From Methanocorpusculum sp. (GTDB lineage Archaea > Halobacteriota > Methanomicrobia > Methanomicrobiales > Methanocorpusculaceae), in contig NZ_JAUSPQ010000004.1 of assembly GCF_030655665.1 (NCBI RefSeq), positions 98,948 through 130,947 on the forward strand: a DNA stretch of 32,000 nucleotides, read 5' to 3'. Both the position numbers and the translations under genes were made by a program. Below are positions 3,893 through 20,102 of this stretch, piece after piece. Numbering within the stretch: the stretch's first letter is position 1; every line of letters begins with the position of its first letter. The notes beneath the pieces were generated by a model that was not told the origin of the DNA, did not search any database, and saw only the letters and a list, made by a program, of their open reading frames with translations.

Positions 3893-3925
3893 AGCGGGTT
3901 GGCGACGAAGTCGACGACCTCAGCG

Positions 3926-3947
3926 GAGCAAATCTTTGATTTGCGAC
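3926..3947. repeat. Dispersed hairpin element, copy 1 (gagcaaatctttgatttgcgac)
   Basis: 7-bp inverted repeat gcaaatc/gatttgc around 3 nt. It is the reverse complement of the copy at 24539..24559. Confidence 0.8.
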
Positions 3948-3987
3948 TGCGGGGAGGAGCCGACTGGCTCGCCCTCAGTTGAGGGTT

Positions 3988-4010
3988 TCCGCTTTCAGCG
4001 TCCACCCCGC
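3988..4010. repeat. 23-nt direct repeat, copy 1 (tccgctttcagcgtccaccccgc)
   Basis: Repeated at 4219..4241 with one mismatch. Preceded by the palindrome ccctcagttgaggg. Confidence 0.8.
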
Positions 4011-4101
4011 AAATCCGCGATAAGAAGGAAATGGAAATAGATCGTTGAGATTGTAAATCCGACTGGGTTTTTCCATCTCATGTTTTTCACCGGCGGGCAT
4101 C

Positions 4102-4140
4102 ACACGAAATTCACGAAAATAATACGAAAACACGAAAAAA
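4102..4140. repeat. Cluster of ACGAAA short repeats
   Basis: acgaaa occurs at 4104, 4113, 4124 and 4132. The block acgaaattcacgaaaa recurs at 4267..4282. Confidence 0.7.
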
Positions 4141-4185
4141 GAAAATCAGCTGGGTGTTGACCCCTATCTTACCCTCCCCCGTCCC

Positions 4186-4207
4186 TCGCAAGTCTATCGA
4201 CTTGCTC
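4186..4207. repeat. Dispersed hairpin element, variant copy (tcgcaagtctatcgacttgctc)
   Basis: Same tc-gcaaNtc...gaNttgc-tc frame as the other copies. The stem has a compensatory A>G / T>C change (gcaagtc/gacttgc). Confidence 0.7.
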
Positions 4208-4218
4208 GGCTGAGGTCG

Positions 4219-4241
4219 TCCGCTTTCAGCGTCCAACCCGC
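4219..4241. repeat. 23-nt direct repeat, copy 2 (tccgctttcagcgtccaacccgc)
   Basis: Matches 3988..4010 apart from one base. Confidence 0.8.
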
Positions 4242-4437
4242 CCCCACACCAAATCCACAAAAATCAACGAAATTCACGAAAAGGGGGGACAGGGGTGGGG
4301 GAATGGCAACTCTTCTTTTTTCAAAAGGAGGTGGTGTGAGCTCTTTTCTTATTCGGGGTGCGGGGAAGTGACTGCGGGCTGCCCCATAGGGGCGGCCTCA
4401 GCTGAGGCTGGGTGAGCCGATAGGCTCGCCCTCAGCG

Positions 4438-4458
4438 GAGCAAACCGAAGGTTTGCGA
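4438..4458. repeat. Dispersed hairpin element, variant copy (gagcaaaccgaaggtttgcga)
   Basis: Stem gcaaacc/ggtttgc has a compensatory T>C / A>G change relative to copy 1. It shares the upstream context cctcagcggagcaaa with copy 1. Confidence 0.75.
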
Positions 4459-4581
4459 TCCGGCGCGGAGCGTCCCGCGGTGGAGATATCTTTTTTTTTT
4501 GATTCGGAAGAGGTTTTTTTTCTCTTTTTTGCGGGAGTGTACGTCGGTTTCGTGTACAGGATTATTATGGAATCATAAGAT

Positions 4582-4772
4582 AAAACCAACCGCGAACCGC
4601 AAATCAGAGATTTGCTCTCCGACTCGCTTCGCTCGCTTGAATCGGCACGAATCTCGCCCTTCGGGCTCTCAGAATCGGATTTGCTATTCCTCACTCTCGC
4701 AATCCAGCTACGCTGTCTTGCTCCTCCCTCATCGGGAACGTTCGGGCAAATCCTGTCTCCGCCCCAGCGGCT
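4582..4772. repeat. Left arm of a long imperfect inverted repeat flanking the AT-rich cassette
   Basis: The reverse complement of 6804..6947 aligns by eye with this arm. Shared blocks are ccaaccgcgaa, cgcccttcgggc, gaatcggatttgctattcctcact, cttgctcctccctcatcggga, cgttcgggcaaatcctgtc and gcggct. The left arm has an extra ~43 nt (about 4597..4638). Confidence 0.85.
4597..4617. repeat. Dispersed hairpin element, copy inside the left arm (ccgcaaatcagagatttgctc)
   Basis: Stem gcaaatc/gatttgc. It lies in the segment that is present in the left arm but missing from the right arm. Confidence 0.75.
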
Positions 4773-6803
4773 CCCGTAAGAATAAGTTGGTACCCTTACA
4801 AATAATGGGGTGAATATTATACTTTTTTATCATTATATTTCAGAATATAGTCTAATTTATCTCTAGCCTTACTCTTCCAATTTTGATCTCTATATATCTT
4901 TTCAGATAATACATCATACTCACCTATAACCACATCACCTCGAGAATACTTCATTTTTAATTTATTGTAATTGGCAACTTCCTTCTCAGATAATTCATCA
5001 AAAAAGAAGAAATGTCCCATTTTATTACCAACCTTTGGTTTCCAGTCTTTCATTTTATTAACCAGATTTTTCATCTCTCCATCAAGATCAGTTGTCTTTG
5101 CTGAAACCTTGCATTCCCCAAAGATTACTGTGCCATCATTACGCACATAGGTTACATCAATTTCATGTTTATTTTGAGCAATATTCCAATCTAAGTTCTT
5201 TGAAGTGTCTGGACTGCGAGATAAATCATAATATGTCAGCAATTCCATTATCAATCCCCTTGCAGAATGAAGTACATCTTGTGTTGTTTCAAGCCTTTTT
5301 TGGATTTCACGAACTTTCTGATTTGCTCGCGCTATTTCTTTATCTTGGCGTTGGATGACTGAAACTGAATGTTCATTTTGGGTTGCAACATCAATTCCCA
5401 TAACATACTTTTCAAAAGTCTCTTTTTTAACCTCAAATGAAACAACATTAAGATATTGCATATATCGTTGGATATCATTATCAATCAACTGATGATAATA
5501 ACCGCCAGTTCCTGAATAATCAGTGTCGGTATCAAAAAATACAATCCAACCAGAGTAATCCATTGCAGAGCCATATCCTTCCATCAGAATTGCATAACTA
5601 TAATCATAACCCTTAAAACAGTGATGTTTGAAAATGCGAACCTGAACTTGCTCTGGGTTTTTCATTTGATTTTTTATTGTAACTGCTCCAATCAATAATG
5701 TCCTGAAAGCGATCATTCCAGAGAAAGGACCTGCTGAAGCATCGAGAAAACCCACATGATACCAAAGAAAAACTTTGTCAAGTTCTTCTTGTAATGATTT
5801 GTTAGGTATTTTATTTAGTTTATCAAAGATAGTTGAAAGCGACTCTTTTGAAAGTTTCGTATCATTTTTGAATGAATATAGATACCAGTCCTTTTCATGG
5901 TCATTATCAAGATCGAGAAAAATGTGGCCATATAAATGATCATAAATATATTGGATTTCATACCAATTTTCTGTATTATGTAAATATTTCAAACATTCTG
6001 TATCCAGTATATTTGGAAATAATTGATCTATTAAATATTCCAGAGAATAACAGTAACCACGGATTATCGTGTCCTTCGCCCCATAATCATCTGATTTGAT
6101 ATATTCCTCCCATTCAGGAGTTCCCTCTATTATTACATCCTCCTCTTTTGAGGAGTGTAATGGAGTAAATGCCTCAGCGTATGGAATCCCACTACCTCGA
6201 ATACATGAAAAATATAGCCATATAGTTCCTTCAATCAAATGTGAATATAATTCGTTTTTAGAATTAGGAAAATCAGAATAGGCATTTTCTTTGAGATGAT
6301 TAGCAAAGATATCCAGAACATTACGCTTCAAGTCGTTGAGTGGATGCCGAGATTTTGAAAAGTTTTTTGATGACTTGATCCTTTTAACATCGTAGCTCAG
6401 GATATAGAGTAAAGATGCTTTCTCACATGTGCGATCCATTTCTTCGGGAGGAACACCAGCGAACACTGCGCGATCAAAAGCAGGATCAGATGTTAATCCA
6501 AATGTTTCATCATAGCAAATTCCTTTAGCAAACCATCCCACAATTAAACCAATGCAGTATAAATAACCGGGTAAGAGTTCGTCTATATTGATATCTGGAT
6601 ATTTTTTATCTATCCACGAAGTAAATGATTTGGCATCAGAAAGAATATCATAACAACCAATTGCCCCATATATTGCATTAACTCCACGTGGACCCAATAC
6701 TAATTTTGAATCATTTTTTGTTGTAACCATATTATGTAATGTGTTGTTTAAGCAAGAGAAATAGATTTACGTTGATTGAGATTTTTTAAAAATGAAAAGT
6801 ATG
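4773..6803. other. AT-rich, foreign-looking single-gene cassette between the inverted arms
   Basis: Composition changes abruptly by eye from the GC-rich flanks to A/T-dominated sequence. It contains one long ORF plus an A/T-rich upstream region (tttttaaaaa at 6785..6794). Confidence 0.55.
4817..6730 (-). CDS. Orphan 637-aa protein with an unrecognised N-terminal ~480 aa, a short coiled-coil-like linker, and a C-terminal PD-(D/E)xK (restriction-endonuclease-like) core
   Basis: It is the only long ORF in the cassette and is AT-rich. The C-terminal pattern is LIMELL ... HEIDVTYVRNDGTVIFGECKV (D525, E539, K541; nt 5108..5167), which fits helix-E / strand-D / strand-ExK of the PD-(D/E)xK fold. 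I recognise no motif in the N-terminal part. Confidence 0.8.
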   Translation of the reverse strand: MVTTKNDSKLVLGPRGVNAIYGAIGCYDILSDAKSFTSWIDKKYPDINIDELLPGYLYCIGLIVGWFAKGICYDETFGLTSDPAFDRAVFAGVPPEEMDRTCEKASLLYILSYDVKRIKSSKNFSKSRHPLNDLKRNVLDIFANHLKENAYSDFPNSKNELYSHLIEGTIWLYFSCIRGSGIPYAEAFTPLHSSKEEDVIIEGTPEWEEYIKSDDYGAKDTIIRGYCYSLEYLIDQLFPNILDTECLKYLHNTENWYEIQYIYDHLYGHIFLDLDNDHEKDWYLYSFKNDTKLSKESLSTIFDKLNKIPNKSLQEELDKVFLWYHVGFLDASAGPFSGMIAFRTLLIGAVTIKNQMKNPEQVQVRIFKHHCFKGYDYSYAILMEGYGSAMDYSGWIVFFDTDTDYSGTGGYYHQLIDNDIQRYMQYLNVVSFEVKKETFEKYVMGIDVATQNEHSVSVIQRQDKEIARANQKVREIQKRLETTQDVLHSARGLIMELLTYYDLSRSPDTSKNLDWNIAQNKHEIDVTYVRNDGTVIFGECKVSAKTTDLDGEMKNLVNKMKDWKPKVGNKMGHFFFFDELSEKEVANYNKLKMKYSRGDVVIGEYDVLSEKIYRDQNWKSKARDKLDYILKYNDKKV

Positions 6804-6947
6804 AGCCGCCGGGGCGGCGACAGGATTTGCCCGAACGGTCCCGATGAGGGAGGAGCAAGACTGCAAAGCAGGCTTGCGATAGTGAGGAATAGCAAATCCG
6901 ATTCGCTCGCCCGAAGGGCGGATTCGCGCCGATTCGCGGTTGGTTTT
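6804..6947. repeat. Right arm of the long imperfect inverted repeat
   Basis: See the left arm. Weaker similarity continues outward (6948..~6999 vs ~4531..4581, e.g. tgtaggtcgatttcgtgtaagg vs tgtacgtcggtttcgtgtacagg). Confidence 0.85.
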
Positions 6948-7033
6948 TTCTCTTGCGTCTACGCTAATACCTTACACGAAATCGACCTACACCCCACGAG
7001 AGGCATTTTTTGGTTATCATCGCCCCACCCCCC

Positions 7034-8072: not shown

Positions 8073-8849
8073 ATGATAAACTTATGTGATTTAACCGGAA
8101 AAGTCGCGGTCGTCGCAGGGGCCTCCAGCGGTCTTGGCGCCGATGCGGCTCGTGCATATGCCGAAGCAGGGGCAAAAGTTGCCATGCTCGCCCGCAGAAC
8201 GGACAAACTCGAAGCAGTCGCAAAAGAAATTACCGAAAAAGGCGGAGATGTGTTCACCTATCCGTGCGATGTAACAAACGAACAAAGCGTCAAAGAGGCG
8301 GTGGACGCGATCGTCAAACATTACGGAACGATCCACATTCTCTTCAACAACGCCGGTATCGCCCAGCGCGGAACGGTCGAGACCCTGACCGTAAAAGAGT
8401 GGGACCTTTCGATGGATACCAACGTCAAAGGCATCTATCTCATGAGCAAGTATGTCATCCCCCACATGAAAGCCCAGAACTATGGTAAGATCGTCAACAC
8501 TGCATCGATCAATGCAGTACTCGGCGACAAAGGTGAAATGTTCGTCCGCCACGTGTACAACACGTCGAAAGCTGCCGTTCTTGGTCTGACCCTTGGTATG
8601 GCAACGTCGTACGGACAGAACAACATCACGGTCAATGCAGTCGGACCCGGGCTGTTTGAATCAGAAATGACGGAAGGCACATTATTCAAATCCGATGCGT
8701 TCATGACCCAATACAGCAAAATGTGTCCGCTGAACCGCCCGGCAAAACGCGGAGAACTGAACGGAACTATCCTCTACTTCTCCAGCGATATGTCGAGTTA
8801 CGTCACCGGTCAGTTCGTGGTCGTGGCGGGCGGTACCGAGCTCGTATAA
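8073..8849 (+). CDS. Short-chain dehydrogenase/reductase (SDR) family oxidoreductase
   Basis: Carries TGKVAVVAGASSGLG (cofactor-binding Gly motif), NNAG, and YNTSK (YxxxK catalytic motif). Confidence 0.9.
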   Translation: MINLCDLTGKVAVVAGASSGLGADAARAYAEAGAKVAMLARRTDKLEAVAKEITEKGGDVFTYPCDVTNEQSVKEAVDAIVKHYGTIHILFNNAGIAQRGTVETLTVKEWDLSMDTNVKGIYLMSKYVIPHMKAQNYGKIVNTASINAVLGDKGEMFVRHVYNTSKAAVLGLTLGMATSYGQNNITVNAVGPGLFESEMTEGTLFKSDAFMTQYSKMCPLNRPAKRGELNGTILYFSSDMSSYVTGQFVVVAGGTELV

Positions 8850-8861
8850 ACTCAAAAAATA

Positions 8862-8876
8862 TTTTTTTCTTTTTTT
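8862..8876. terminator. Oligo-T tract between convergent genes (A-run 8853..8858 serves the opposite strand)
   Basis: tttttttctttttt lies directly after the SDR stop. Archaeal termination typically uses oligo-T. Confidence 0.4.
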
Positions 8877-8886
8877 CGGAACGCAG

Positions 8887-9681
8887 TCACGCGTGATGAG
8901 TTTCGCGATACAGCGCTGAAACAGCGTTCAGTGTTTTGAATCCCTTATCCGTGATCACGTAATCTCCCCGCTCATGACGCTGAAGGATCATGCCTGAGTC
9001 GGTGAGTTTTTTGATATGAAACAGCAGATTCCCGCCGCGTAATCCGGTCATGCTCGAGAGATCGGAAAAGGTCCGTGTTTGTGCCGCAAGTGACTTGAGG
9101 ATCTGAAAACGCAGGATGTTTGCTACCGGTTCGAGCAGATCTTTTACGGCCGTTTCTTCCGGGATATCCGTGATGATGTCGTCAGTGCTGCCGTTTTCTG
9201 CATAAATACCGAGAGACTGCATAAGATCGACCTGCTTTTCAAAAAGACGATAGACCTGCGAAAAACAGGTATCACACCGGTCAAACGGTCCCGCTTCCCG
9301 CATGCCTTTCAACTGTTCCCGGTATGATCGGATGATCTCCTCGGAGACCTGACCGTCTCTGATATGCTTTGATGTGTTCTGCAGAAAATCCAGAAACACG
9401 CCGTAACATTTGTCCCGCATCCCGCAGTCGGCAACCATATTCGCCGAAAGTTCCGACTTCGCTGTGTCCAGCTGATCATTGACGAAAAGCCCGGCATAAT
9501 TCTGCTTAAGATCAGTAAGAGCAGTTTGAACATGCTGCTGATTTGCATGTTCGATAAAGCGTTTCAGATCCATACGGAGACCTGTGACCTCTGACTTTAG
9601 TTCACGGATCTCCGTTAATGATGAACTCAGTGTTGTTCCCATGATGCTTCTTTTCCTATTAACCTCATTAGTAATGCACAC
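8887..9681 (-). CDS. ArsR/wHTH-type regulator with a Cys-containing N-terminal domain
   Basis: C-terminal ILRFQILKSLAAQTRTFSDLSSMTGLRGGNLLFHIKKLTDSGMI is a winged-helix segment. The N-terminal part has coiled-coil-like sequence and four Cys (DCGMRDKC ... DRCDTC). An alternative start is ATG 9642 (MGTTLSS). Confidence 0.65.
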   Translation of the reverse strand: MCITNEVNRKRSIMGTTLSSSLTEIRELKSEVTGLRMDLKRFIEHANQQHVQTALTDLKQNYAGLFVNDQLDTAKSELSANMVADCGMRDKCYGVFLDFLQNTSKHIRDGQVSEEIIRSYREQLKGMREAGPFDRCDTCFSQVYRLFEKQVDLMQSLGIYAENGSTDDIITDIPEETAVKDLLEPVANILRFQILKSLAAQTRTFSDLSSMTGLRGGNLLFHIKKLTDSGMILQRHERGDYVITDKGFKTLNAVSALYRETHHA

Positions 9682-9744
9682 TCATTAACCCGCAGGGTCA
9701 TTATTCTGTATCAGCACGCTTTGTATATTTTAATGACGCTCTTG

Positions 9745-9756
9745 TATATAAATATA
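9745..9756 (+). promoter_or_regulatory. TATA-like box upstream of 9776/9785
   Basis: tatataaatata lies about 30 nt upstream of ATG 9785, consistent with a short-leader or leaderless archaeal transcript. Position only, untested. Confidence 0.35.
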
Positions 9757-9775
9757 ACACGACTATAAGTATCTG

Positions 9776-10186
9776 GTGAAAAAGATGCCAACATGGAAAT
9801 ACACAGGCAAAACAGTGACACAGGCAAAGGCAGAAGAATCCCTCAAATCGATCAAGGGAGCATGCTTCGGGTGCGAGACCCACAGTCCGGACTGTCCGAT
9901 CGCAAAGGCCGCAGGAGAGATCGCCGGCATGCCCGGATTTGAAGCCCTTTCCGTAAAGGAGCAGATCCACGCACAGATCAGCGGGGCACTTGCGGGAGCA
10001 AACTTCCCGATCAAAACACCCGGCGATCTTATTGCAGCGTTTCCAAACGGTGCAGACACGACCTGTCAGGCCGGCGATCTGAAGATGACCGCGGGTGAAG
10101 CAGGCACACTTCTTACGGCAGCGGATTTCCCGTTCAAGAGCGCGAAGTCGGTCGCCGATATGATCGTCGAGCGGGCCGGACTTTAA
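9776..10186 (+). CDS. Small protein with an N-terminal Cys motif (CFGCETHSPDC) and a C-terminal helical domain that resembles, from memory, the MTH865-like family
   Basis: The ORF starts at GTG 9776, with ATG 9785 perhaps more likely. The C-terminal segment is FPIKTPGDLIAAFPNGADTTCQAGDLKMTAGEAGTLLTAADFPFKSAKSVADMIVERAGL. The family assignment is unverified recall. Confidence 0.45.
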   Translation: MKKMPTWKYTGKTVTQAKAEESLKSIKGACFGCETHSPDCPIAKAAGEIAGMPGFEALSVKEQIHAQISGALAGANFPIKTPGDLIAAFPNGADTTCQAGDLKMTAGEAGTLLTAADFPFKSAKSVADMIVERAGL

Positions 10187-10237
10187 GCACGGAAATTCCT
10201 TCGTTAAAGGATCTCAGCAGGGTGAAAAACCCGAACA

Positions 10238-10253
10238 TTTTTTTTCTTTTTTT
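10238..10253 (+). terminator. Oligo-T terminator candidate
   Basis: ttttttttcttttttt lies about 50 nt after the stop at 10186. Confidence 0.4.
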
Positions 10254-10333
10254 CTCAGGTATGATGAGGGCCGATACCGGAAGATTTCCCGATGAACAAA
10301 TCTTTTTTACTCATGCCGGGTATTATTATCTCA

Positions 10334-10758
10334 ATGAACACAGGCAACCTCGAAGAACTTGCCCTCATCACAGACCAAAAGATCCTCGCAGTCTGGGCTC
10401 TGGATTGTGCCGAACGTGTTCTCCCCATCTTCGAAGAAAAATATCCAAACGACCCGCGTCCCCGCGAGGCTTTGGAGGCAGGACGTGCCTGGGTCCAGGG
10501 GGAGATCCGGGTCGGCGAAGCGCAAATAGCCGCATTTTCTGCACATGCAGCTGCACGAACCGCGGCGGGCGATCCACCCGCATCCTTCGCGGCCCGTGCT
10601 GCTGGTCACGCCGCAGCAACTTCGCACACGTCCGGTCACGCGCGATCCATGCCGCAGACTACGCCGTAAAAGCTGTTTCCCCCGATCAGAAAAACGGGGA
10701 GCGTGCCTGGCAGTACAATCATCTGCTTAAACTCACGTCTGATATCCAAAGCCTTTGA
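10334..10758 (+). pseudogene. Frameshifted gene for a helical protein of a family often annotated as putative immunity protein
   Basis: Frame A reads MNTGNLEELALITDQKILAVWALDCAERVLPIFEEKYPNDPRPREALEAGRAWVQGE...AAGHAAATSHTSGHA and stops at 10669. The expected continuation AIHAADYAVKAVSPDQKNGERAWQYNHLLKLTSDIQSL is in another frame (tail of track ORF 10222..10758). The switch maps to the cgcgcg run at about 10640..10645. Confidence 0.55.
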
Positions 10759-10835
10759 ACGAAATCCATACGCAAGGTCCCGCAGAAACCATAATATCAC
10801 ACGCAGAACCTCTAATCTGATAAGGAATACCCGGC

Positions 10836-11216
10836 ATGTTTCAAAAAATACGACGTCTCTTCGCTGACCCGCCTCAACCGGCAGAAATCTGCCAGCCACA
10901 AAATACTACCCCTGAGCAGATCATCGAAAGACTGGAGAGAGAAGCGGCAGAAGGGAAGGTCGACGCGATCTACCTGCTCGGCATGGCATATTATTCCGTG
11001 GACGGTGCGGCAAAGGATCCCGGGCAGGCAAAAGCGTGGTTTGAAAAAGCAGCTGCAGAGGGAAATACTGCGGCCATGCGGAACCTTGCCGAGATGTATA
11101 CGGCCGGTAACGGAGTGGAAAAAGATCCCGTGAAAGCAAAAGAATGGGTGCGAAAAGCAGAAGAGATCGAGATAATGCTCAAAGCTCTCGGGTTGGTCTG
11201 GGGTGTCGCGGAATGA
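10836..11216 (+). CDS. Sel1-repeat (TPR-like) protein
   Basis: Two Sel1-type repeats: AIYLLGMAYYSVDGAAKDPGQAKAWFEKAAAEG and AMRNLAEMYTAGNGVEKDPVKAKEWVRKA. Confidence 0.8.
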   Translation: MFQKIRRLFADPPQPAEICQPQNTTPEQIIERLEREAAEGKVDAIYLLGMAYYSVDGAAKDPGQAKAWFEKAAAEGNTAAMRNLAEMYTAGNGVEKDPVKAKEWVRKAEEIEIMLKALGLVWGVAE

Positions 11217-11259
11217 TGCCGGAAACCGATTCCCGAAAAAGGGTCATACAGTCCAGTTG

Positions 11260-11301
11260 AAAATCATTATATGCAAATATGTGCATATAGTAATATATGT
11301 C
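11260..11301 (+). promoter_or_regulatory. Promoter/operator block, copy A (upstream of hgcA), containing the palindrome TATATGCA-N6-TGCATATA
   Basis: 42 nt aaaatcattatatgcaaatatgtgcatata[g]taatatatgtc, identical to 13026..13067 except one base. The perfect 8-bp inverted repeat is at 11268..11275 / 11282..11289. The A/T-rich part can double as a TATA box. Confidence 0.6.
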
Positions 11302-11344
11302 ATCACTGTGTCTTTACGAAGCAAAAGATCCTGACAAAATGTGA
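11297..11344 (+). pseudogene. Remnant of the arsD-like gene (15 codons)
   Basis: atgtcatcactgtgtctttacgaagcaaaagatcctgacaaaatgtga aligns with the 5' end of 13063.. (MSSLCLYEAKDPDKM* vs MSSMVIFESKTPDKTT...). Confidence 0.6.
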
Positions 11345-11463
11345 TACAAACCCCTACATTTCCCGAAACGATCTTCAAAGCATTCGGCGATGTAAGCAGA
11401 CTTTGGATACTTTCCCTCCTGCAGGATCACGTAGCCTCACGATCCTCTGAAAAATGTGATTAA
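11341..11463 (+). pseudogene. Internally deleted arsR remnant (40 codons, HTH removed)
   Basis: 11365..11392 and 11414..11431 match arsR 13400..13427 and 13449..13466. 11438..11463 matches the arsR 3' end 13710..13735. About 243 nt of arsR (13467..13709) is replaced by 6 nt and the frame is kept: ..PETIFKAFGDVSRLWILSLLQDH|VASRSSEKCD*. Confidence 0.7.
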
Positions 11464-11465
11464 TC

Positions 11466-12539
11466 ATGACCGAAGAAAATAATACCTCAATATTTGAAAC
11501 GAAGAAGAAAACGATCACCGGGACGCAGACCTGCGGATGCGCTGACAACTGTTGCGAGACCCCTGCGATCCAGACGACCACGAGCAAGATCATCTTCGCT
11601 GACAGGCTTGACCATCTCCTTGCCCGGTTGGGCTGGAACCGGTTAAACCACAGCGTCGAACCCGGCCTGTACCGGCTCGGAGATCCGGATGCAGAATCCC
11701 CGGTTTTTGCATCGGCAAACTATACCCTGAGCTTTGATGCCCTCCGTTCCTCTCTTGCAGGGATCGATGCATGGATCCTTGTCCTGGATACGAAGGGGAT
11801 CAATGTCTGGTGTGCTGCCGGAAAAGGGACGTTTGGGACAGATGAACTCGTCCACAGAATAGAATCCACAGGCCTTGCCGGTATCGTCTCGCACCGTAAG
11901 ATCATCGTGCCCCAACTTGGAGCACCGGGTGTCTTCTGGCCGGAAGTGGTGCAGAGGACGAAGTTCATTGTCGAGTACGGTCCGGTCCGGGCAAACGACC
12001 TGCCGGAGTACCTGAAAACGCACACGGCGACCCCTGACATGCGGTGTGTCAAGTTTTCCTTGCGGGACCGGCTGGTACTGACGCCTGTTGAATTCATGCA
12101 CTTTGCGCTCCCGACCGTAGCAATATCAGCGGCCCTCTGGTTCCTTGCCGGGCCTTTTGCAGCACTTGCCGCGGTATCAGCGGTCCTTTCCGGGACCGTA
12201 CTCTTTCCACTGCTGCTGCCCGTTATCCCAACACGGGACTTTTCGACCAAAGGGATGATCCTTGGCGTGATCGTATCCCTTCCCTTCGCATATGTTTTCG
12301 GGACAACGCCAGGACTACCGATGTGGGCCGGGGCCCTTTCAGCGGTTGCAGCCCTTCTCCTCATCCCGGCGGTGATCGCGTATCTTGCCCTGAATTTCAC
12401 CGGCTGCTCAACGTTCACCTCACGGATGGGGGTCAAAAAGGAGATCTTCTCGTATGTCAAGGTCATGGCGGGAATGGCGGCAGTCGGCGTGATAAGCGGC
12501 ATTATTCTTGGCGTATCAAAGATCATGGGGGTGATCTGA
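11466..12539 (+). CDS. hgcA: HgcA, corrinoid protein of the mercury-methylation pair
   Basis: Diagnostic cap-helix motif NVWCAAGK at nt 11802..11825 in the context LVLDTKGINVWCAAGKGTFGTDEL. Upstream is PGLYRLGDPDAESPVFASANYTLSFDALR. The C-terminal half is hydrophobic (several TM helices). It is followed immediately by a 2x[4Fe-4S] ferredoxin. Confidence 0.88.
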   Translation: MTEENNTSIFETKKKTITGTQTCGCADNCCETPAIQTTTSKIIFADRLDHLLARLGWNRLNHSVEPGLYRLGDPDAESPVFASANYTLSFDALRSSLAGIDAWILVLDTKGINVWCAAGKGTFGTDELVHRIESTGLAGIVSHRKIIVPQLGAPGVFWPEVVQRTKFIVEYGPVRANDLPEYLKTHTATPDMRCVKFSLRDRLVLTPVEFMHFALPTVAISAALWFLAGPFAALAAVSAVLSGTVLFPLLLPVIPTRDFSTKGMILGVIVSLPFAYVFGTTPGLPMWAGALSAVAALLLIPAVIAYLALNFTGCSTFTSRMGVKKEIFSYVKVMAGMAAVGVISGIILGVSKIMGVI

Positions 12540-12889
12540 TGTTCAATTCCTATACCGAAACCAGCCTTTCCTTTGATTCGGCGCTTTGTATAAACTGCAA
12601 ACGCTGCACGCAGGTCTGTCCCCATGCGGTCTTTACTGCAGGCCCGACATGTGTATCCCTCGATCGGCCGTCTGCCTGCATGGAATGCGGAGCCTGCGCT
12701 CTCAACTGCCCTGTCCAGGCAATAACCGTTCAGAGCGGGGTCGGCTGTGCGTGGGCGATGATCGGTGCCGCGCTCCGGGGAAAGGATATGGACACAGAAT
12801 CCTGCTGCGGTGAGAACGGTTCGTGCTGCGGGAATTCCGGATCGAAACAAAAAGCCTCGGTCTGCGATTGCGGAAAGAAGGAGCGATAA
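12539..12889 (+). CDS. hgcB: HgcB, 2x[4Fe-4S] ferredoxin partner of HgcA
   Basis: ATG 12539 overlaps the hgcA stop (tgATG). It has CINCKRCTQVCP and CMECGACALNCP cluster motifs and a Cys-rich tail (SCCGENGSCCG...CDCG). The longer track ORF 12323..12889 is an in-frame upstream extension overlapping hgcA. Confidence 0.85.
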   Translation: MFNSYTETSLSFDSALCINCKRCTQVCPHAVFTAGPTCVSLDRPSACMECGACALNCPVQAITVQSGVGCAWAMIGAALRGKDMDTESCCGENGSCCGNSGSKQKASVCDCGKKER

Positions 12890-13025
12890 CTGGTATTTTG
12901 GAGCAGAGCCCTGCATTTGGGGGTACTCTCTGAAAAACCCGGATGAACACAGGGTCTGAACCCTATTTCAAAAATCTATTTTTTACCGTGAGCACCGTTT
13001 AGGGATCAGTCATACATTCTCTTTC

Positions 13026-13067
13026 AAAATCATTATATGCAAATATGTGCATATAATAATATATGTC
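13026..13067 (+). promoter_or_regulatory. Promoter/operator block, copy B (upstream of the ars operon), with the palindrome TATATGCA-N6-TGCATATA
   Basis: Same 42-nt block as 11260..11301, with the palindrome at 13034..13041 / 13048..13055. The A/T box is about 25-30 nt upstream of ATG 13063, which suggests a leaderless or very short-leader transcript with the operator overlapping the core promoter. Confidence 0.6.
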
Positions 13068-13395
13068 GTCGATGGTTATTTTTGAATCAAAAACCCCTGA
13101 CAAAACCACGTATGAGTATCTCCAGACAACTGAACTCATAGACAAACTCAATCCCTCAGGAATTGAGATTTCCCGTGCAATCTGGGATACAAACACCAAC
13201 GTCCGCCATCTTGTAGAGAAACATGGTGAAGAAATTCTTCCGGCAGTGGTGGTAAATGATTTCATCATGATCACCGGAAGATACCCGTCAAAAGAAGAAA
13301 TCAGACAGATTCTTCATGTACCTGACAAACTTATCGCAGAAGAATGCCAGGGATGCGGGTGTTGTTGTATCCAGGGATACGAATGCGATGAGTGA
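13063..13395 (+). CDS. ArsD-like (thioredoxin-fold arsenic metallochaperone family) protein with an atypical Cys pattern
   Basis: The segment VRHLVEKHGEEILPAVVVNDFIMITGRYPSKEEIRQIL resembles the ArsD core (..LP..L.DGE.V..GRYP...EL). The usual N-terminal CC/C motif is absent, and a C-terminal CQGCGCCCIQGYEC tail is present. Confidence 0.55.
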   Translation: MSSMVIFESKTPDKTTYEYLQTTELIDKLNPSGIEISRAIWDTNTNVRHLVEKHGEEILPAVVVNDFIMITGRYPSKEEIRQILHVPDKLIAEECQGCGCCCIQGYECDE

Positions 13396-13735
13396 TCCAG
13401 AAACGATCTTCAAAGCATTCGGCGATGCGACCCGACTTCGGATCCTTGCCCTCCTGCAGGATCACGAGTTATGCGTTTGCGAGATCGAAGCAGCACTCTC
13501 CCTCTCCCAGCCCAACGCATCACGCAGCCTGACGATCCTGAAAAACGCTGGCATCATCCAGAGCAGAAAACAGGCACAATGGACCTACTACAAAATCAGC
13601 GATGATTTTTCCGCCGTCTACCCTGACCTTTCCAGAGCCCTGGAAAACATCTGTGCCGGATTGCCGTCGACAAATGCAGACAAAGACGCCTTGAAAAAAT
13701 GCAGACAAACACGATCCTGCGAAAAATGTGATTAA
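13388..13735 (+). CDS. arsR: ArsR-family metalloregulator
   Basis: The start MSDPETIFKAFGDATRLRILALLQDHELCVCEIEAAL contains the ELCVCE metal-binding motif and an HTH. ATG 13388 overlaps the arsD-like stop (ATGAGTGA). The track ORF start at 13316 is an upstream extension. Confidence 0.88.
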   Translation: MSDPETIFKAFGDATRLRILALLQDHELCVCEIEAALSLSQPNASRSLTILKNAGIIQSRKQAQWTYYKISDDFSAVYPDLSRALENICAGLPSTNADKDALKKCRQTRSCEKCD

Positions 13736-13737
13736 TC

Positions 13738-13911
13738 ATGACCGAAGAAAAAAAGACCTCAATATTTGGAAAGATGAAGAAAGCGATCACCGGAGAAAAC
13801 TGCTCCTGCTGCTGTAATATCAAAATTGTGCCGGAAAAACCCGGATGTGATGACGAAGCCGGGTCGAAAGACCAATGCGGAGAAAACTGCAGCTGCCGTA
13901 AATCTGAATGA
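13738..13911 (+). CDS. 57-aa Cys-rich small protein (not in the ORF track)
   Basis: MTEEKKTSIFGKMKKAITGENCSCCCNIKIVPEKPGCDDEAGSKDQCGENCSCRKSE has 9 Cys. It starts 2 nt after the arsR stop, and its stop overlaps the permease start (ATGA at 13908..13911). The first ~19 codons are duplicated as the N-terminus of hgcA. Confidence 0.55.
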   Translation: MTEEKKTSIFGKMKKAITGENCSCCCNIKIVPEKPGCDDEAGSKDQCGENCSCRKSE

Positions 13912-14789
13912 GTTTTGTGGATACGCTCCTCGCGGCCGGTCAGTATTTCCTGATCATAGCCCTGGAGCTTACAGCACTATTCATCGTCGTCTGTCTGATC
14001 GTCGGGGCACTGAACGTCTATGTCCCCAAAGAGAAGATGCAGAAGGTCCTCGGGCACTCCGGCTCGGTCAGGGGAAGCGTTATCGGGGCGGCGTTCGGTG
14101 CAATAACCCCATTCTGCTCCTGCTCGACGATCCCGGTCACCCTGGGATTTCTGAAGTCAGGCGTGGCATTTTCCAGTGCCATGTCCTTCCTTTTCGCGTC
14201 CCCGCTTCTGAACCCGGTCATTCTCGCGATGATGCTCGTCATATTCGGACCCGAGATCACCATCGTGTATGCGGTCCTGATGTTCACTCTAGCCGTATTG
14301 ATCGGGCTGACCCTTGACAAGCTCAGGTTCAAAAAATACGTCAAACCGGTCGCGGTCGAAGGAATGACCGAAGAGACCGGCACAAAACTACAGAGGATCG
14401 TCGGGTTTGCCTGGACCACGTTCCGACAGATGATCCCCTATCTCCTGCTCGGAGCAGCGATCGGCGCATTCATCTACGGATTTCTGCCGGCCGACTGGAT
14501 CCTGGCCGTCGCGGGACCAGAAAACCTGTTCGCGATTCCTGTCGCCGCGCTCATCGGGATCCCGCTCTATATCAGAGCAGAGACAATTCTCCCGATCAGT
14601 GCCGCCCTCTTAAGCAAAGGAATGGGGGCGGGGACCGTGGCCGCCCTTCTGATCGGCGGGGCAGGCATGAGTATCCCCGAGATCACCATGCTTTCGGCGA
14701 TCTTTAAGAAACAGTTCGTTCTGGTGTTTGTCGCAACGATCTTTATTTCGGCCGTGGTGACCGGATTAGTCGTGCAGGTGATCATATGA
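13908..14789 (+). CDS. arsP: ArsP-type permease (PF03773-like predicted permease)
   Basis: 293-aa polytopic membrane protein with the GAITPFCSCSTIPV vicinal-Cys motif characteristic of ArsP-like permeases. Sits in an ars operon context. Confidence 0.75.
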   Translation: MSFVDTLLAAGQYFLIIALELTALFIVVCLIVGALNVYVPKEKMQKVLGHSGSVRGSVIGAAFGAITPFCSCSTIPVTLGFLKSGVAFSSAMSFLFASPLLNPVILAMMLVIFGPEITIVYAVLMFTLAVLIGLTLDKLRFKKYVKPVAVEGMTEETGTKLQRIVGFAWTTFRQMIPYLLLGAAIGAFIYGFLPADWILAVAGPENLFAIPVAALIGIPLYIRAETILPISAALLSKGMGAGTVAALLIGGAGMSIPEITMLSAIFKKQFVLVFVATIFISAVVTGLVVQVII

Positions 14790-15163
14790 AACGTATCGCC
14801 TTTCTCTGCGTCAAAAACTCCTGCAGATCACAGATAGCCGAAGCTCTCTGCCAGCATCTCGGCGGCGATATCTTCATCTGTTATTCGGCAGGCAGTGATC
14901 CGGGCGAATCCGTCGACCCGACGGCGATCCGGTTCATGCAGGAACATTACGGGATCGATATGCGTGGAATGAGTCCGAAACCTATCTCCGATCTGCCGAA
15001 GATCGACATCGTTGTCACGATGGGCTGCGGGGTCGCCTGCCCCGTCATTCCCGGAACACGGCGGATCGAATGGCATATCGACGACCCGGTCGGAAAAGGA
15101 GACGAGGCGTATCGTTTGGCGATCACTGAAATAGAAGCAAATATAAAAACATTGATAGAGTGA
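14786..15163 (+). CDS. arsC: Arsenate reductase, low-molecular-weight phosphatase type
   Basis: CX5R P-loop in IAFLCVKNSCRSQIAEAL, 125 aa. The start overlaps the permease stop (ATGA). Confidence 0.88.
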   Translation: MKRIAFLCVKNSCRSQIAEALCQHLGGDIFICYSAGSDPGESVDPTAIRFMQEHYGIDMRGMSPKPISDLPKIDIVVTMGCGVACPVIPGTRRIEWHIDDPVGKGDEAYRLAITEIEANIKTLIE

Positions 15164-15167
15164 TGTT

Positions 15168-16226
15168 ATGACAGAGAACAGCAGCGCAGGAATCGGGATA
15201 TTCGGCAAATATCTTACCATCTGGGTGATCATCTGCATGATCATCGGGGTTATGATCGGCAAATTCCTACCGTTCATCCCGAAATTTCTCGGAACGTTCG
15301 AGTATGCCGGTGTTTCGATCCCCATCGCGATACTCATCTGGGTAATGATCTACCCGATGATGCTGAAAGTGGATTTTCAGAGCATCAAATATGTCGGAAA
15401 AAATCCAAAAGGACTCGTTCTCACCTGGGTCGTGAACTGGCTGATCAAACCCTTCACGATGTTTGCGATCGCCGGATTCTTCTTCTATATCGTATTCAGT
15501 GCCCTCATCCCTGCCGGCCTTGCGCAGGATTATCTTATCGGCGCCGTGCTTTTAGGTGCAGCTCCGTGTACGGCAATGGTGTTCGTCTGGAGTTATCTGA
15601 CGAAAGGAAACGCCGCCTATACGGTCGTCCAGGTCGCAACGAATGATCTGATCATTCTTGTCGCATTCGTCCCGATCGTCGCATTCCTGCTCGGGATAAG
15701 CGGCATCAGTGTTCCGTGGGCCACCCTGTTCCTTTCGGTCGTCCTGTTTGTCGTGATCCCCCTCCTGGGCGGGGTCATAACACGGATGTATCTCATCAGG
15801 AAAAAAGGAGAGGAGTATTTTACCCGGACATTCCTCCCGAAGTTCGACCATATCACCATCATCGGTCTGCTGCTCACCCTCGTGATCATTTTTTCGTTCC
15901 AGGGAACGGTTATTCTGGAAAATCCACTGCACATTCTTCTGATCGCCGTGCCGCTGATCATTCAGACCGTGCTGATATTTTTTATCACCTACGGAGCAGG
16001 CAGGCTGTTGAACCTTCCTCACAGCATCGCAGCCCCGGCAGGTATGATCGGCGCCTCGAACTTCTTTGAATTGGCCGTCGCGGTATCGATCGCGCTGTTT
16101 GGAACCAACAGTCCGGTCGCTCTCGCGACGATCGTCGGGGTCCTGGTCGAAGTTCCGGTCATGCTGATGCTCGTGAAAATCGCAAACGCCACAAAAGACC
16201 GGTTCCCGAATACGGATCTGGACTGA
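15168..16226 (+). CDS. acr3: ACR3-family arsenite efflux transporter
   Basis: 352-aa ~10-TM protein with the conserved LLGAAPCTAMVFVW segment. Confidence 0.9.
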   Translation: MTENSSAGIGIFGKYLTIWVIICMIIGVMIGKFLPFIPKFLGTFEYAGVSIPIAILIWVMIYPMMLKVDFQSIKYVGKNPKGLVLTWVVNWLIKPFTMFAIAGFFFYIVFSALIPAGLAQDYLIGAVLLGAAPCTAMVFVWSYLTKGNAAYTVVQVATNDLIILVAFVPIVAFLLGISGISVPWATLFLSVVLFVVIPLLGGVITRMYLIRKKGEEYFTRTFLPKFDHITIIGLLLTLVIIFSFQGTVILENPLHILLIAVPLIIQTVLIFFITYGAGRLLNLPHSIAAPAGMIGASNFFELAVAVSIALFGTNSPVALATIVGVLVEVPVMLMLVKIANATKDRFPNTDLD

Positions 16227-16227
16227 G

Positions 16228-16620
16228 TTACATTTTTGCAGGTTCTTCAGCGAAGATCCTGCCCTTTTCCGTTATCCTGTAGATGATCCAGTTCCCCTGC
16301 TGTTCAGATACGATCAGACCATTCTCCTTCATGATATTCAGATGATAGGAGAGTTTCGATCCTGAAATCCCGATACACTCCCGAATCACACAGACACACA
16401 GCGGCTGGATCGTGAGGAGACAGAGAATAGTAATACGAACCGTATCGGATAATGCGTGATGCGTCGAGCTTATTTCCTCAATTTGTTCCGGAGAGGGTAA
16501 ACGTTCGCGGAGTCCTTTCACGCCGCCAACTGCGTTTAGATCGCACCGGATTATCTCAGGAATCCCGGACCGTGAAATCGGCTCTATAGTGGATTTTGCT
16601 GATGGGTTTTTGATTGTCAT
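16228..16620 (-). CDS. arsR: Second ArsR-family regulator
   Basis: The segment RITILCLLTIQPLCVCVIRECIGISGSKLSYHLNIMKENGLI has a CVC motif plus an HTH. Divergent from the permease at 16729. Confidence 0.85.
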   Translation of the reverse strand: MTIKNPSAKSTIEPISRSGIPEIIRCDLNAVGGVKGLRERLPSPEQIEEISSTHHALSDTVRITILCLLTIQPLCVCVIRECIGISGSKLSYHLNIMKENGLIVSEQQGNWIIYRITEKGRIFAEEPAKM

Positions 16621-16728
16621 ATTATGTCTGAGCTATTTCAAATTATTATGAAATGCATAGATATAAATAATTTCTCAGACAATAATGAGTTCAATAAAAA
16701 TTGAAATCGTTTTGTGAGAGGTGAAAAA

Positions 16729-17799
16729 ATGCTAGATTTACTAATCGGCTCACTCCTGCTTGGATGGGAGACCCTGCTGGGGTATTTATCCCAACATGTT
16801 GTGACATGCCTTATTCCTGCGTTCTTCATCGCCGGCGCAATTGCAACATTTATCAAAAAAGATGCAATTCTCAAATACTTCAGCCCGGAGACGAATAAGC
16901 TTGTATCTTATGGTATCGCGTCAATTTCCGGCACCGTACTTGCGGTTTGCAGCTGCACGATCCTGCCGATGTTTGCCGGCATTCTCAAAAAAGGGAGCGG
17001 ACTTGGACCTGCCATTACGTTCCTCGTTGCGGGACCTGCAATCAACATTCTTGCGATCATCTACACTGCTCAGGTACTTGGACTCGATCTTGGTCTCGCA
17101 CGGGCATTAGCGGCCGTAGTTATTTCAATTTTGATCGGATTGATTATGATGAAGCTGTTTCCCGCTCACGATACTGAGACGAGAAAGACGTTCGGAGCAG
17201 CACGCAAAGCCGCGATCGCGAGCGAAGCTACCCGGCCAAAATGGGTCGTTCCGGTATTCTTTGTCTTACTGGTTGCGATTCTTCTGGTCGGAACTTCTGC
17301 ATTAGATGCTTTTATCCGACTCTTCATTGTGTTCTTAATCACGATTGTGATCGCCTATCTGCTGATTTACTATTTCACCCGTGATGAAGTAACCGACTGG
17401 GGGATGGAGATCTGGGACCTGACGAAAAAAATCTTCCCGATTCTCATTATAGGTACATTTGCTCTTGGTGTCCTTTCGTTCTTCCTTCCGGCAGAAGTGT
17501 TCAAACCATTCATTGGCGACAACTCAATTCTTGCAAATTTGTTTGCTGCCCTTGTAGGAACGATCCTCTATATGCCGACACTTCTTGAAGTTCCGGTCAT
17601 TGGAACAACACTGGGATACCTGACAGGATCCATGGCGAAAGGCCCTGCCCTCGCACTTCTCCTCACCGGCCCTACAGTCAGCCTGCCGAGTCTTCTTGTT
17701 CTCTATCGTCTCATCGGCGGAAAGAAGACGGTGGTCTATGTATGTCTGATCATAGTTTTTGCGACCATAGCAGGTTTTGTCTTCGGGAATGTATTCTAA
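16729..17799 (+). CDS. Second PF03773-type permease
   Basis: Has the SGTVLAVCSCTILPMFAG motif and is polytopic. ATG 16729 is preceded by gaggtga (SD-like). The track start GTG 16714 is less likely. Confidence 0.75.
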   Translation: MLDLLIGSLLLGWETLLGYLSQHVVTCLIPAFFIAGAIATFIKKDAILKYFSPETNKLVSYGIASISGTVLAVCSCTILPMFAGILKKGSGLGPAITFLVAGPAINILAIIYTAQVLGLDLGLARALAAVVISILIGLIMMKLFPAHDTETRKTFGAARKAAIASEATRPKWVVPVFFVLLVAILLVGTSALDAFIRLFIVFLITIVIAYLLIYYFTRDEVTDWGMEIWDLTKKIFPILIIGTFALGVLSFFLPAEVFKPFIGDNSILANLFAALVGTILYMPTLLEVPVIGTTLGYLTGSMAKGPALALLLTGPTVSLPSLLVLYRLIGGKKTVVYVCLIIVFATIAGFVFGNVF

Positions 17800-18992: not shown

Positions 18993-20102
18993 TTATTGTG
19001 TATCGTACAGTTTCACGACATCACGCATTTGAGAAGCATATTTGTAGATATCCGGCGTTGACGTAATTGGATACTTCTCCTCTTTTCCATTGACAAATAT
19101 CGTGATGTAACGCTTTGTCTGACTATTGAAATGTAACCGGCAGATGGGTTTTCGGTTATTATCATCCAAAATAATGCCGCAGTATGTTTTTACATCCCTC
19201 ATTATAACCCGTGTGGGATCCACCGTATCACTCAGAATCGCACGAACGATTAAAAATCCCTCCCTTTCCTCATCAGTGGTGATAATGTCTGACTCTTCCT
19301 CGACATTTTCTTCAATTTCTTTTGGTTGTTCGGGTATTTCGGGGGACATCGCAGATTTGAGACGGTCATTGATGATATCATTGATGAACTGATGCAAGGC
19401 ACGCTTGGTTATTTCCGTGAAGTTATTTACTACATTTTTGGTGAGAAGCCCATCGTAAATCTGATGTGCAAAATATTTCACGAAATCCTGCGACGGATTT
19501 TCCATCTCCTGAGCAAGGATAAGCTTCATCGCTTTGATATATTTCATATTCATAGCAGACGGCAGGATCTTATCCACATTGAAGCTCTCCTTTCTGAATT
19601 GTTTTAAATTCTCCGCACTTTGCTCAGTGAGATTAAGCAGATCCACATCAAGGAAAGGTTTTGTGTCCATCTTGTTTAGAGCTTCGCAATCCGAATAAAA
19701 CAGATACTTTACCCCATTTGTCAGAATACCGATTTTTGCAGGACCCACAGAGAAATAGCGGAATAGTTGTGACATGTGAACCGTTGCCAGATCAGTACCA
19801 ACGGTTTTACATTCAATAAGAATGATGGGTTTTCCATCCTGCATAATAGCATAATCTATTTTTTCTCCTTTTTTGATTCCAACATCCGCAATGCACTCCG
19901 GACAAACCTCAGTCGGATCAAATACATTATACCCCAGAATCTGGAGGAAAGGCATTACCAATCCAGTTTTTGTTGCCTCCTCAGTTTTTATACCTTCAAC
20001 GATTTTTGGAATTCTGTTTGAAAAAACGCATAATTGTTCATTAAAATCCATATTACTCACATGATAGAAATACATCTCAACAATATATAGATGTTTGCTC
20101 AT
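18993..20102 (-). CDS. Stand-alone HsdR_N-like (type I restriction enzyme R N-terminal domain) PD-(D/E)xK protein
   Basis: AT-rich ORF. TEEATKTGLVMPFLQILGYNVFDPTEV...GEKIDYAIMQDGKPIILIECK (nt 19806..19856) is the HSDR_N-type nuclease core. The likely true start is MDFNEQL at 20054. No adjacent methylase or specificity genes. Confidence 0.65.
   Translation of the reverse strand: MSKHLYIVEMYFYHVSNMDFNEQLCVFSNRIPKIVEGIKTEEATKTGLVMPFLQILGYNVFDPTEVCPECIADVGIKKGEKIDYAIMQDGKPIILIECKTVGTDLATVHMSQLFRYFSVGPAKIGILTNGVKYLFYSDCEALNKMDTKPFLDVDLLNLTEQSAENLKQFRKESFNVDKILPSAMNMKYIKAMKLILAQEMENPSQDFVKYFAHQIYDGLLTKNVVNNFTEITKRALHQFINDIINDRLKSAMSPEIPEQPKEIEENVEEESDIITTDEEREGFLIVRAILSDTVDPTRVIMRDVKTYCGIILDDNNRKPICRLHFNSQTKRYITIFVNGKEEKYPITSTPDIYKYASQMRDVVKLYDTQ

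Follow-up and report, generated by a model that had tools for sequence, protein, structure and literature searches.

The 32,000-nt stretch of DNA analysed here (the window; Methanocorpusculum sp., contig NZ_JAUSPQ010000004.1, positions 98,948–130,947 of the forward strand) carries a 637-aa open reading frame (ORF) on its minus strand, between an ALDH gene and a gene for a TrmB-like regulator. A preliminary description, made from the sequence alone, had delimited this ORF exactly (4817–6730, with an ATG start) and had presented its product as an orphan of foreign composition in a repeat-flanked context, with a Shedu-like architecture and a candidate role as a defence nuclease. The composition is indeed foreign, with a GC content of 0.33–0.38 across the ORF and 0.47–0.57 in both flanks (0.34 for the ORF, compared to about 0.5–0.56). 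The repeats, likewise genuine and far beyond chance, pair nt 4672–4773 with 6803–6904 (102 nt, 91% complementarity) and nt 4534–4599 with 6930–6995 (66 nt, 76% complementarity), and are in fact the arms of a dispersed palindromic element. The gene and its own presumed promoter region form a low-GC cassette of 2.0 kb, which fills the exact interval between the inner ends of the two inverted ~190-nt arms and is one of several alternative cargos found in that position (Table 1). The 43-nt 3′ inner flank of this cassette is conserved where this cargo occurs in L001 and is unlike the flanks of other cargos, while the 5′ inner flank includes an A/T-rich TATA-like box (TTTTTAAAAAAT, at about nt 6781–6792, 51–62 nt 5′ of the ATG), presumed to be a cargo-borne archaeal promoter. 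Scans of the window for tRNA genes and Rfam families returned no match. The four Methanocorpusculum copies of the gene are all intact and 77–83% identical, and their ratios of nonsynonymous to synonymous substitution rates (dN/dS, 0.32–0.47) indicate that the protein evolves fairly fast, under purifying selection.

The protein is not an orphan. A word-indexed search returned 20 homologues. Exhaustive searching with HMMER at E ≤ 0.001 yielded 301 (219 at E ≤ 1e-10), each representing one 50%-identity cluster, and most of these are 580–690 aa long and aligned over their full length. Members of this single-copy family occur among archaea in Methanocorpusculum, Methanimicrococcus hongohii (on a complete chromosome), Methanosarcinaceae, Pacearchaeota, the Asgard archaeon Atabeyarchaeum, and Nitrososphaerota, and among bacteria in Bacillota, Dehalococcoidia, and Spirochaetota, a sporadic spread that resembles the outcome of horizontal gene transfer. 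An identical protein in a Methanocorpusculum sp. metagenome-assembled genome (MAG) bears the sole annotation hypothetical protein, no family member has a functional name in public sources, and we found no description of either the family or the Methanocorpusculum palindromic element in the literature. A viral origin was rejected, as the IMG/VR viral contigs searched hold no relative of the protein and the predicted viral structures of BFVD gave no fold match.

The C-terminal 130 aa are predicted, by fold and by profile, to be a PD-(D/E)xK nuclease domain nearest to those of Can2, Card1, and DUF1887 proteins. The full-length AlphaFold2 model (20 homologues as input) has a mean predicted local distance difference test score (pLDDT) of 83.3 and shows, in this region, a helix to residue 504, strands at 509–519, 522–530, and 535–541, a helix at 549–561, and a strand at 570–576, that is, the alpha-beta-beta-beta-alpha-beta core of the fold, with D525 opening the second strand and E539 and K541 in the third. 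Every credible Foldseek match in the PDB was a PD-(D/E)xK nuclease (probability up to 1.00; best E 5e-3, with the whole multidomain protein as query), including Card1 (6xl1, the top match), SfsA, NucS/EndoMS, EcoO109I, R.BspD6I, several entries of Can2, ACE1/Cas4, and CdiA-CT. A profile of 124 family members matched, among solved structures, the DUF1887 protein 8bao (E = 4e-5), Can2 (7bdv, 5e-4), AF1548, and VC1899, in each case through the C-terminal domain only. Among the same 124 sequences, E496 is conserved in 118 (95%), D525 in 117 (94%), E539 in 112 (90%), and K541 in 90 (73%), which upholds the earlier choice of D525, E539, and K541 as catalytic candidates. The motifs from which this core had originally been recognized, LIMELL (aa 493–498, nt 5237–5254), HEIDVTYV (aa 522–529, nt 5144–5167), and VIFGECKV (aa 535–542, nt 5105–5128), are placed such that nt 5108–5167, the interval first given for the arrangement, covers D525 to K541. 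The coiled-coil-like linker also noted there (DKEIARANQKVREIQKRLETTQ, aa 463–484) lies inside a 52-residue helix in the model, the end of which is the nuclease helix bearing E496. Detection of the domain by family models was faint; Pfam gave one sub-threshold match (DUF234, of the PD-(D/E)xK clan, aa 515–544), NCBIfam and PADLOC gave none, and weak sub-threshold matches to Card1_endonuc were seen in 5 of 75 family members (best 0.0092) and not in the window protein.

The region N-terminal to the nuclease, hereafter the N-module, holds all invariant and near-invariant positions of the family within its ~450 aa. It comprises an all-helical subdomain, in which G55, R87, A88, K104, P183, G225, and Y226 are near-invariant, and an alpha/beta subdomain, in which the top conserved residues are W323, G338, G348, H369, S378, Y379, D391, S393, G394, W395, D404, and G407 and which carries the signature 'KHP...YSYAIL...DYSGW...D.DYSG'. 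When residues 1–460 were modelled alone they formed a single compact unit (pLDDT 86.5; predicted template modelling score, pTM, 0.84). The initial impression that no motif could be placed in the first ~480 aa was borne out, as Pfam, NCBIfam, and PADLOC scans found no family for the N-terminal 480 aa. Foldseek searches with aa 1–460 gave nothing credible against the PDB (best E 0.41, where only faint resemblances to RNase H were seen, at probability ≤0.12) or, for the N-module, against BFVD (best E 0.19), and no CARF or Rossmann match; CARF and SAVED were also undetected by Pfam and PADLOC. We considered whether the alpha/beta subdomain might be a degenerate copy of the C-terminal nuclease, which hhalign ruled out (probability 0.3%).

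The N-module is conserved across all 164 proteins compared and the C-terminus is variable. We scanned 75 diverse members singly with Pfam, whose nuclease domains drew only weak matches from the PD-(D/E)xK clan (NERD, Card1_endonuc, DUF234, Mrr_cat). Two members carry a different domain in the nuclease's place, in both cases above the Pfam threshold, namely SLFN_AlbA_2 in P0088 (aa 475–610, 2e-15) and TIR_2 in P0095 (aa 517–631, 1e-8). In a census of 162 proteins with a complete N-module, made with hidden Markov models (HMMs) derived from the family, 131 (81%) have the nuclease tail, 15 have another tail of at least 100 aa, and 16 end where the N-module ends; the second class includes a recurrent helical tail (P0020, P0098, P0118, P0151). 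Stand-alone N-modules (430–470 aa) make up about 10% of members, and in two tail-less genes (L137:6001-7809 and L138:1106-2923) a conserved small ORF (135–163 aa) follows 19–60 nt downstream. That this ORF is a split-off nuclease domain was ruled out, since the family nuclease HMM gives no match. It shows weak, consistent matches to DNPH1/Rcl-type N-hydrolases (E 0.2–0.4), and the pair may, as a lead only, represent a version split over two genes, the effector of which would target nucleotides. A constant N-module joined to variable effectors is what characterizes an immune sensor or regulator, and it is as the constant partner of variable effectors that we label the N-module a putative sensor.

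The arms flanking the gene are found widely, and mostly with something else between them. Metagenomes scanned for a 29-nt arm motif yielded 117 contigs, and sensitive mapping delimited 278 arm segments; the 637-aa gene is present in three of the 117 (L041, L043, L050). The commonest form of the element is compact, consisting of an arm, a conserved, oriented core (58–61 or 91–97 nt), and an inverted arm, and is represented by 46 distinct copies, one of which folds into a near-perfect hairpin of ~150 bp (−151 kcal/mol, z = −24.5). The core could be a small RNA, or could serve as a site for protein binding or for recombination. Another assembly contains a 77%-identical copy of the gene between 154-nt arms (97%) at the same spacing of 2,028 nt as in the window, there placed between FdhD and FMN reductase genes. 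Comparison of the arms showed that they group by chromosomal site and side, and not by cargo. The identity of the TrmB-side arm is 97% with its counterpart in L083 and 92% with that in L124, which occupy the same site with other cargos, compared to only 85% with the arm beside the same gene at the other site in L001; the ALDH-side arm is 90% identical to that of L021, again with a different cargo, and gives an 89% match to the arm reference (L001:9742-9940).

The 45-nt insert in the ALDH-side arm (GAACCGCAAATCAGAGATTTGCTCTCCGACTCGCTTCGCTCGCTT), which has a small palindrome inside, recurs at L003:~9750-9795 and in the L083 arm and is missing at that point from other arms; this looks like a mini-repeat nested inside the arms. 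Between the ALDH gene and this arm lie ~640 nt of GC-rich, non-coding sequence (nt 3893–4530) made up of a mosaic of short palindromic modules, such as GAGCAAATC...GATTTGC (nt 3915–3946 and 4427–4458) and CTCAG..GAGG..CCGCTTTCAGCGTCCA (nt 3974–4010 and 4205–4241), which recur in many Methanocorpusculum contigs and constitute a second repeat family, separate from the arms.

At least 12 types of cargo other than the 637-aa gene occupy its position between wide arm pairs, with similarly low GC content (0.32–0.35; Table 1). The commonest occupant is a gene for a 150-aa PDDEXK_3 protein, some copies of which are frameshifted; this could be a gene native to the element, or a selfish one. Codons 1–43 of a PDDEXK_3 gene that was displaced are still present 5′ of the Upx-like cargo (remnant L052:411-539), indicating that cargos displace one another. 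Every cargo has its own upstream region (41–322 nt), which points to the entire inter-arm segment as the exchanged unit; as the upstream regions differ cargo by cargo, the idea that the carrier element provides the promoter was rejected. Two further notions were discarded: compact cores are not deletion derivatives of the PDDEXK_3 cargo (chance matches only), and the other nuclease-tailed cargo, the 695-aa Upx-like protein, shows no BLASTP similarity to the 637-aa protein.

At the ALDH|TrmB site, different contigs carry four alternative occupants (Table 1). The L083 block, which has one detectable arm only, encodes a CARF3/HFX_2341_N and winged-helix protein and a DinG-like helicase (PADLOC typeIV_DinG, 1e-89), with no cas genes in view of that block. 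L083 stems from an assembly that bears the 637-aa gene at the FdhD site. Contig L034, which we had considered as a possible empty site, instead holds an occupant of the L083 type. The FdhD|FMN_red site is likewise polymorphic, with the 637-aa gene in L001 and L002 and a compact palindrome in L094 and L133. By association with the other cargos, the 940-aa NTPase and the DUF4062 protein are candidate new defence genes.

Table 1. Positions of the gene, its domains, and its flanking arms in the window, with compact palindromes, alternative cargos, and site occupants in other contigs
Feature	Position	Strand	Remarks
637-aa ORF	4817..6730	minus	ATG start; conserved N-module, long helix, predicted PD-(D/E)xK nuclease domain
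All-helical subdomain of N-module, aa 15–320	5771..6688	minus	AlphaFold2 models, conservation; no PDB/BFVD fold match
Alpha/beta subdomain of N-module, aa 321–450	5381..5770	minus	Holds the family's most conserved residues
Connecting helix, 52 residues, aa 453–504	5219..5374	minus	DSSP of AlphaFold2 model; pLDDT 49–77 in first half
Predicted PD-(D/E)xK nuclease domain, aa 486–615	4886..5275	minus	Foldseek, family profile, residue conservation
Candidate catalytic residues	E496 5243-5245; D525 5156-5158; E539 5114-5116; K541 5108-5110	minus	
3′ inner flank of cassette, 43 nt	4774..4816	minus	Stop codon to arm inner end; cargo-owned
5′ inner flank of cassette, 72 nt	6731..6802	minus	Conserved among copies of the 637-aa cargo, absent from other cargos
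ALDH-side arm	4534..4773	plus	Runs from outer to inner end; core 4639-4773; nested 45-nt insert about 4594-4638; outer extension 4534-4593
TrmB-side arm	6803..6995	minus	Inner end 6803
Compact palindromes (examples)	L094:4437-4785; L020:3041-3312; L022:1685-1988		Non-palindromic core, e.g. CTGTGAGGGA...CCANTGG
Cargo: Kiwa (KwaA + KwaB)	between arms		PADLOC matches, both proteins
Cargo: Dsr1	between arms		Full length, 1290 bits
Cargo: dGTPase	between arms		1e-60
Cargo: Old/GajA-like ATPase-Toprim	between arms		1e-48
Cargo: PDC-S06 / AAA_13	between arms		PADLOC and Pfam matches
Cargo: PDC-S31 / DUF2971	between arms		PADLOC and Pfam matches
Cargo: 695-aa Upx-like protein	between arms		Partial PADLOC match
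Cargo: SngA-like TerB_N protein	between arms		Partial PADLOC match
Cargo: DUF4062 protein, 585–590 aa	L021:1058-2815; L072:151-1923		N-terminal DUF4062; Pfam match only, no PADLOC match
Cargo: PDDEXK_3 (GxxExxY-type), 150 aa	L067:278-730; L076:3128-3580; L113:93-545; L070; L073; L096; L045		
ALDH|TrmB occupant 1: 637-aa gene	window; L003; L041; L050		
ALDH|TrmB occupant 2: DUF4062 gene	L021		Swapped exactly between inner arm ends
ALDH|TrmB occupant 3: 940-aa P-loop NTPase	L124:226-3048		Weak NACHT/AAA_22 similarity, no PADLOC match
ALDH|TrmB occupant 4: low-GC block	L083:4976-8604; also L034		CARF-winged helix-turn-helix protein, 105-aa protein, DinG-like helicase

Distant homologues of the protein lack flanking inverted repeats, and several lie among defence genes. 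In a Pacearchaeota MAG (L013:8449-17206), the family member (9974-11803) is set between hsdM (8449-9960) and hsdS (11811-13088) of a type I restriction-modification (R-M) system, with hsdR (14114-17206) downstream. Another homologue adjoins ThiF, Prok-E2, and helix-turn-helix/ImmA genes, and one from Nitrososphaerota has a Type ISP enzyme nearby. PADLOC, run over 82 neighbouring ORFs, identified type I R-M, MADS, PDC-M05, PglX-like, AriA/Toprim, PDC-S09, and Csa3 proteins. Across roughly 15 loci inspected, no cas or cyclase genes were found, the two Csa3-like neighbours being all that was seen of this kind. The family is thus associated with known defence genes and variable islands, in a qualitative sense that carries no background statistic.

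Elsewhere in the window, three collinear blocks of direct repeats (97, 71, and 84 nt; 81–90%) at nt 11243–11521 and 13009–13793, 1.8–2.3 kb apart, suggest duplicated promoter or 5′ regions of two adjacent genes. Two further blocks (186 and 264 nt, 72–73% identity, at a spacing of about 800 nt) at nt 28951–29537 and 29759–30321 are likely tandem paralogous genes or domains. A second low-GC stretch (nt 19000–20500; 0.40 vs. about 0.5), with negative GC skew and no arm sequence, may be another foreign insertion.

Taken together, we consider that the 637-aa protein is probably a self-contained sensor-effector nuclease directed against viruses or mobile genetic elements and carried on an exchangeable cassette. 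The ~450-aa N-module, with no recognizable fold, would act as the sensor or regulator, coupled through the long helix to a Can2/Card1-type nuclease as the executioner, which would probably degrade DNA once the N-module is triggered, most likely through a change in oligomeric state. The same N-module would drive TIR, Schlafen, and other effectors elsewhere in the family. The arms would be resident, each pair at its own chromosomal location, and other defence genes would replace the segment that they enclose, most plausibly by recombination through the homologous arms, which is the simplest mechanism. The description of the gene as a candidate defence nuclease was therefore a good call, given the nuclease fold, the conserved residues, and the variable, defence-rich contexts, the last of which set the homologues apart from a family tied uniformly to housekeeping genes; its orphan status and the Shedu-type logic attached to it did not stand.

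Several points weigh against this account. Architecture and guilt by association are the grounds for the defence role, none of the PADLOC models match the protein, and the N-module shows no detectable ligand-binding or sensor signature. K541 is kept in just 73% of the sequences compared and the nuclease motif is lost in some members. Several homologues (L014, L016) lie amid housekeeping genes, two copies forming single-gene islets there, and the cassette system is known only from a few related Methanocorpusculum populations, mainly through metagenome contigs.

Among the alternatives, that of a transposase or homing nuclease, with the arms as the terminal inverted repeats of its element and the compact palindromes as deletion derivatives resembling miniature inverted-repeat transposable elements, is invited by a single ORF bracketed by long inverted repeats, by the occurrence of gene and arms as a unit at two chromosomal sites, and by the many gene-less compact copies. 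We nonetheless regard it as very improbable and already largely refuted, since the arms are abundant, mostly lack the gene, and cluster by site. The grouping of the arms by chromosomal site and not with the gene, the gene's presence in so few (3/117) arm-bearing contigs, and the many other cargos in the same position argue against a transposase and for resident arms with replaced cargos. Distant homologues without flanking inverted repeats, and a single-copy family with swappable TIR and Schlafen effectors, would also be unexpected for a transposase. A housekeeping nuclease of DNA repair or recombination, akin to NucS, EndoMS, or Mus81, is the least probable of all; NucS/EndoMS and Mus81 are among the Foldseek PD-(D/E)xK matches and some homologues have housekeeping neighbours, but the sporadic distribution, the presence/absence polymorphism at the same site, the foreign composition, and the lack of orthology to repair families in Pfam and NCBIfam all speak otherwise.

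Two further possibilities, each of which we think unlikely and to a similar degree, would keep the nuclease and change its purpose or trigger. The protein could be an ancillary nuclease activated by a second messenger in the manner of Can2/Card1, though through a non-CARF receptor, and fired in trans once infection is signalled by a cyclase whose gene lies elsewhere (type III CRISPR Cas10, a CBASS-like one, or another). Its nearest nuclease relatives are the Can2, Card1, and DUF1887 proteins activated by cyclic tetra-adenylate (cA4), the residues it conserves best are grouped in a small alpha/beta subdomain, which might form a ligand pocket, and signalling systems typically combine TIR and nuclease effectors with a single receptor module; set against these are the failure of Pfam, PADLOC, and Foldseek to detect CARF or SAVED, the roughly 15 loci without cyclase or cas genes (bar the two Csa3-like neighbours), and the movement of the gene as a single-gene cassette. 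Alternatively, low GC content, mobility, cassette context, a nuclease effector, and relatively fast protein evolution would suit a conflict or addiction module, in which a nuclease toxin stabilizes the cassette or acts on plasmids or competing elements. Yet the 2.0-kb cassette has no cognate antitoxin or immunity ORF, its co-cargos are bona fide anti-phage systems, and one homologue sits inside an R-M operon.

Returning to the sensor-effector nuclease on an exchangeable cassette, a wider generalization is quite possible, if tentative, namely that the N-module is an unrecognized, widespread family of immune sensors (a new fold with nuclease, TIR, Schlafen, or helical effectors, possibly also split DNPH1/NDT-like ones) and that Methanocorpusculum carries dispersed, resident palindromic docking elements at which single defence genes are exchanged, a functional analogue of integron cassette banks by another recombination route. 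If true, an uncharacterized sensor module would be added to prokaryotic immunity, spanning methanogens, Asgard archaea, DPANN, Nitrososphaerota, and several bacterial phyla, and effector swapping would provide a direct handle on what the N-module senses. The hairpin element context may matter more, as a sequence-defined catalogue for finding new archaeal defence genes, with the 637-aa protein, the DUF4062 protein, and the 940-aa NTPase as cargos with no known function. Cassette exchange also suggests a simple means of shuffling defence genes within and between archaeal strains, a process that, to our knowledge, is far better understood for bacteria than for archaea.

With respect to known systems, the protein does not belong to the Shedu family, to the CARF effectors, or to transposases; membership of Shedu, CARF, and SAVED families was ruled out, as none had HMM or fold support. 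In Can2, a sensor domain controls a non-specific nuclease (PMC7969007). The 637-aa protein would share this logic with Can2 and Card1, which by profile and fold have the nuclease domains nearest to its own, but CARF is absent from the protein by Pfam, PADLOC, and Foldseek, an unrecognized fold fills its N-terminal 450 aa, and neither the roughly 15 homologue loci nor the window neighbourhood show a CRISPR-cas association. Shedu (SduA) is a DUF4263 nuclease with variable N-termini. The architecture first likened to it does hold in part, with a single gene, a C-terminal PD-(D/E)xK nuclease, and a large, presumably regulatory N-terminal region; however, DUF4263/SduA models are unmatched at E ≤ 10 in Pfam and PADLOC, and the variability is inverted, with the N-module constant and the C-terminal effector swapped.

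The fusion of a conserved module to alternative nuclease, TIR, Schlafen, or other effectors, with about 10% of the family split into two genes, is a likeness to modular immune sensors of the Avs/STAND, ThsA, Cap4/Cap5, and Lamassu types, from which the N-module differs in that it lacks any P-loop and any signature of SAVED, CARF, or SMC, and in that nothing in Pfam, PADLOC, the PDB, or BFVD matches it. Phage defence can be encoded on integron gene cassettes (bioRxiv 10.1101/2024.07.02.601719; PMC12614218). The Methanocorpusculum cassettes are similar in being small, mostly single-gene defence cassettes bounded by imperfect palindromes and exchanged at fixed points, which yields a reservoir of alternatives. 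They differ in their archaeal host, in having two inverted ~190-nt arms, in being dispersed single elements with arms resident at each site, and in that the cargos bring their own presumed promoter regions; no attC site, IntI or other integrase, or tandem cassette array was seen in the arm-bearing loci. PrrC is an accessory defence gene in a type I R-M operon, between hsdM/hsdS and hsdR. The Pacearchaeota homologue, between hsdM and hsdS with hsdR downstream, recalls this arrangement, although the family has no sequence relation to PrrC or RloC and the window copy has no R-M neighbours. In its way of working, the 637-aa protein appears to resemble other modular single-protein defence effectors, with a predicted nuclease domain of the Can2/Card1 type.

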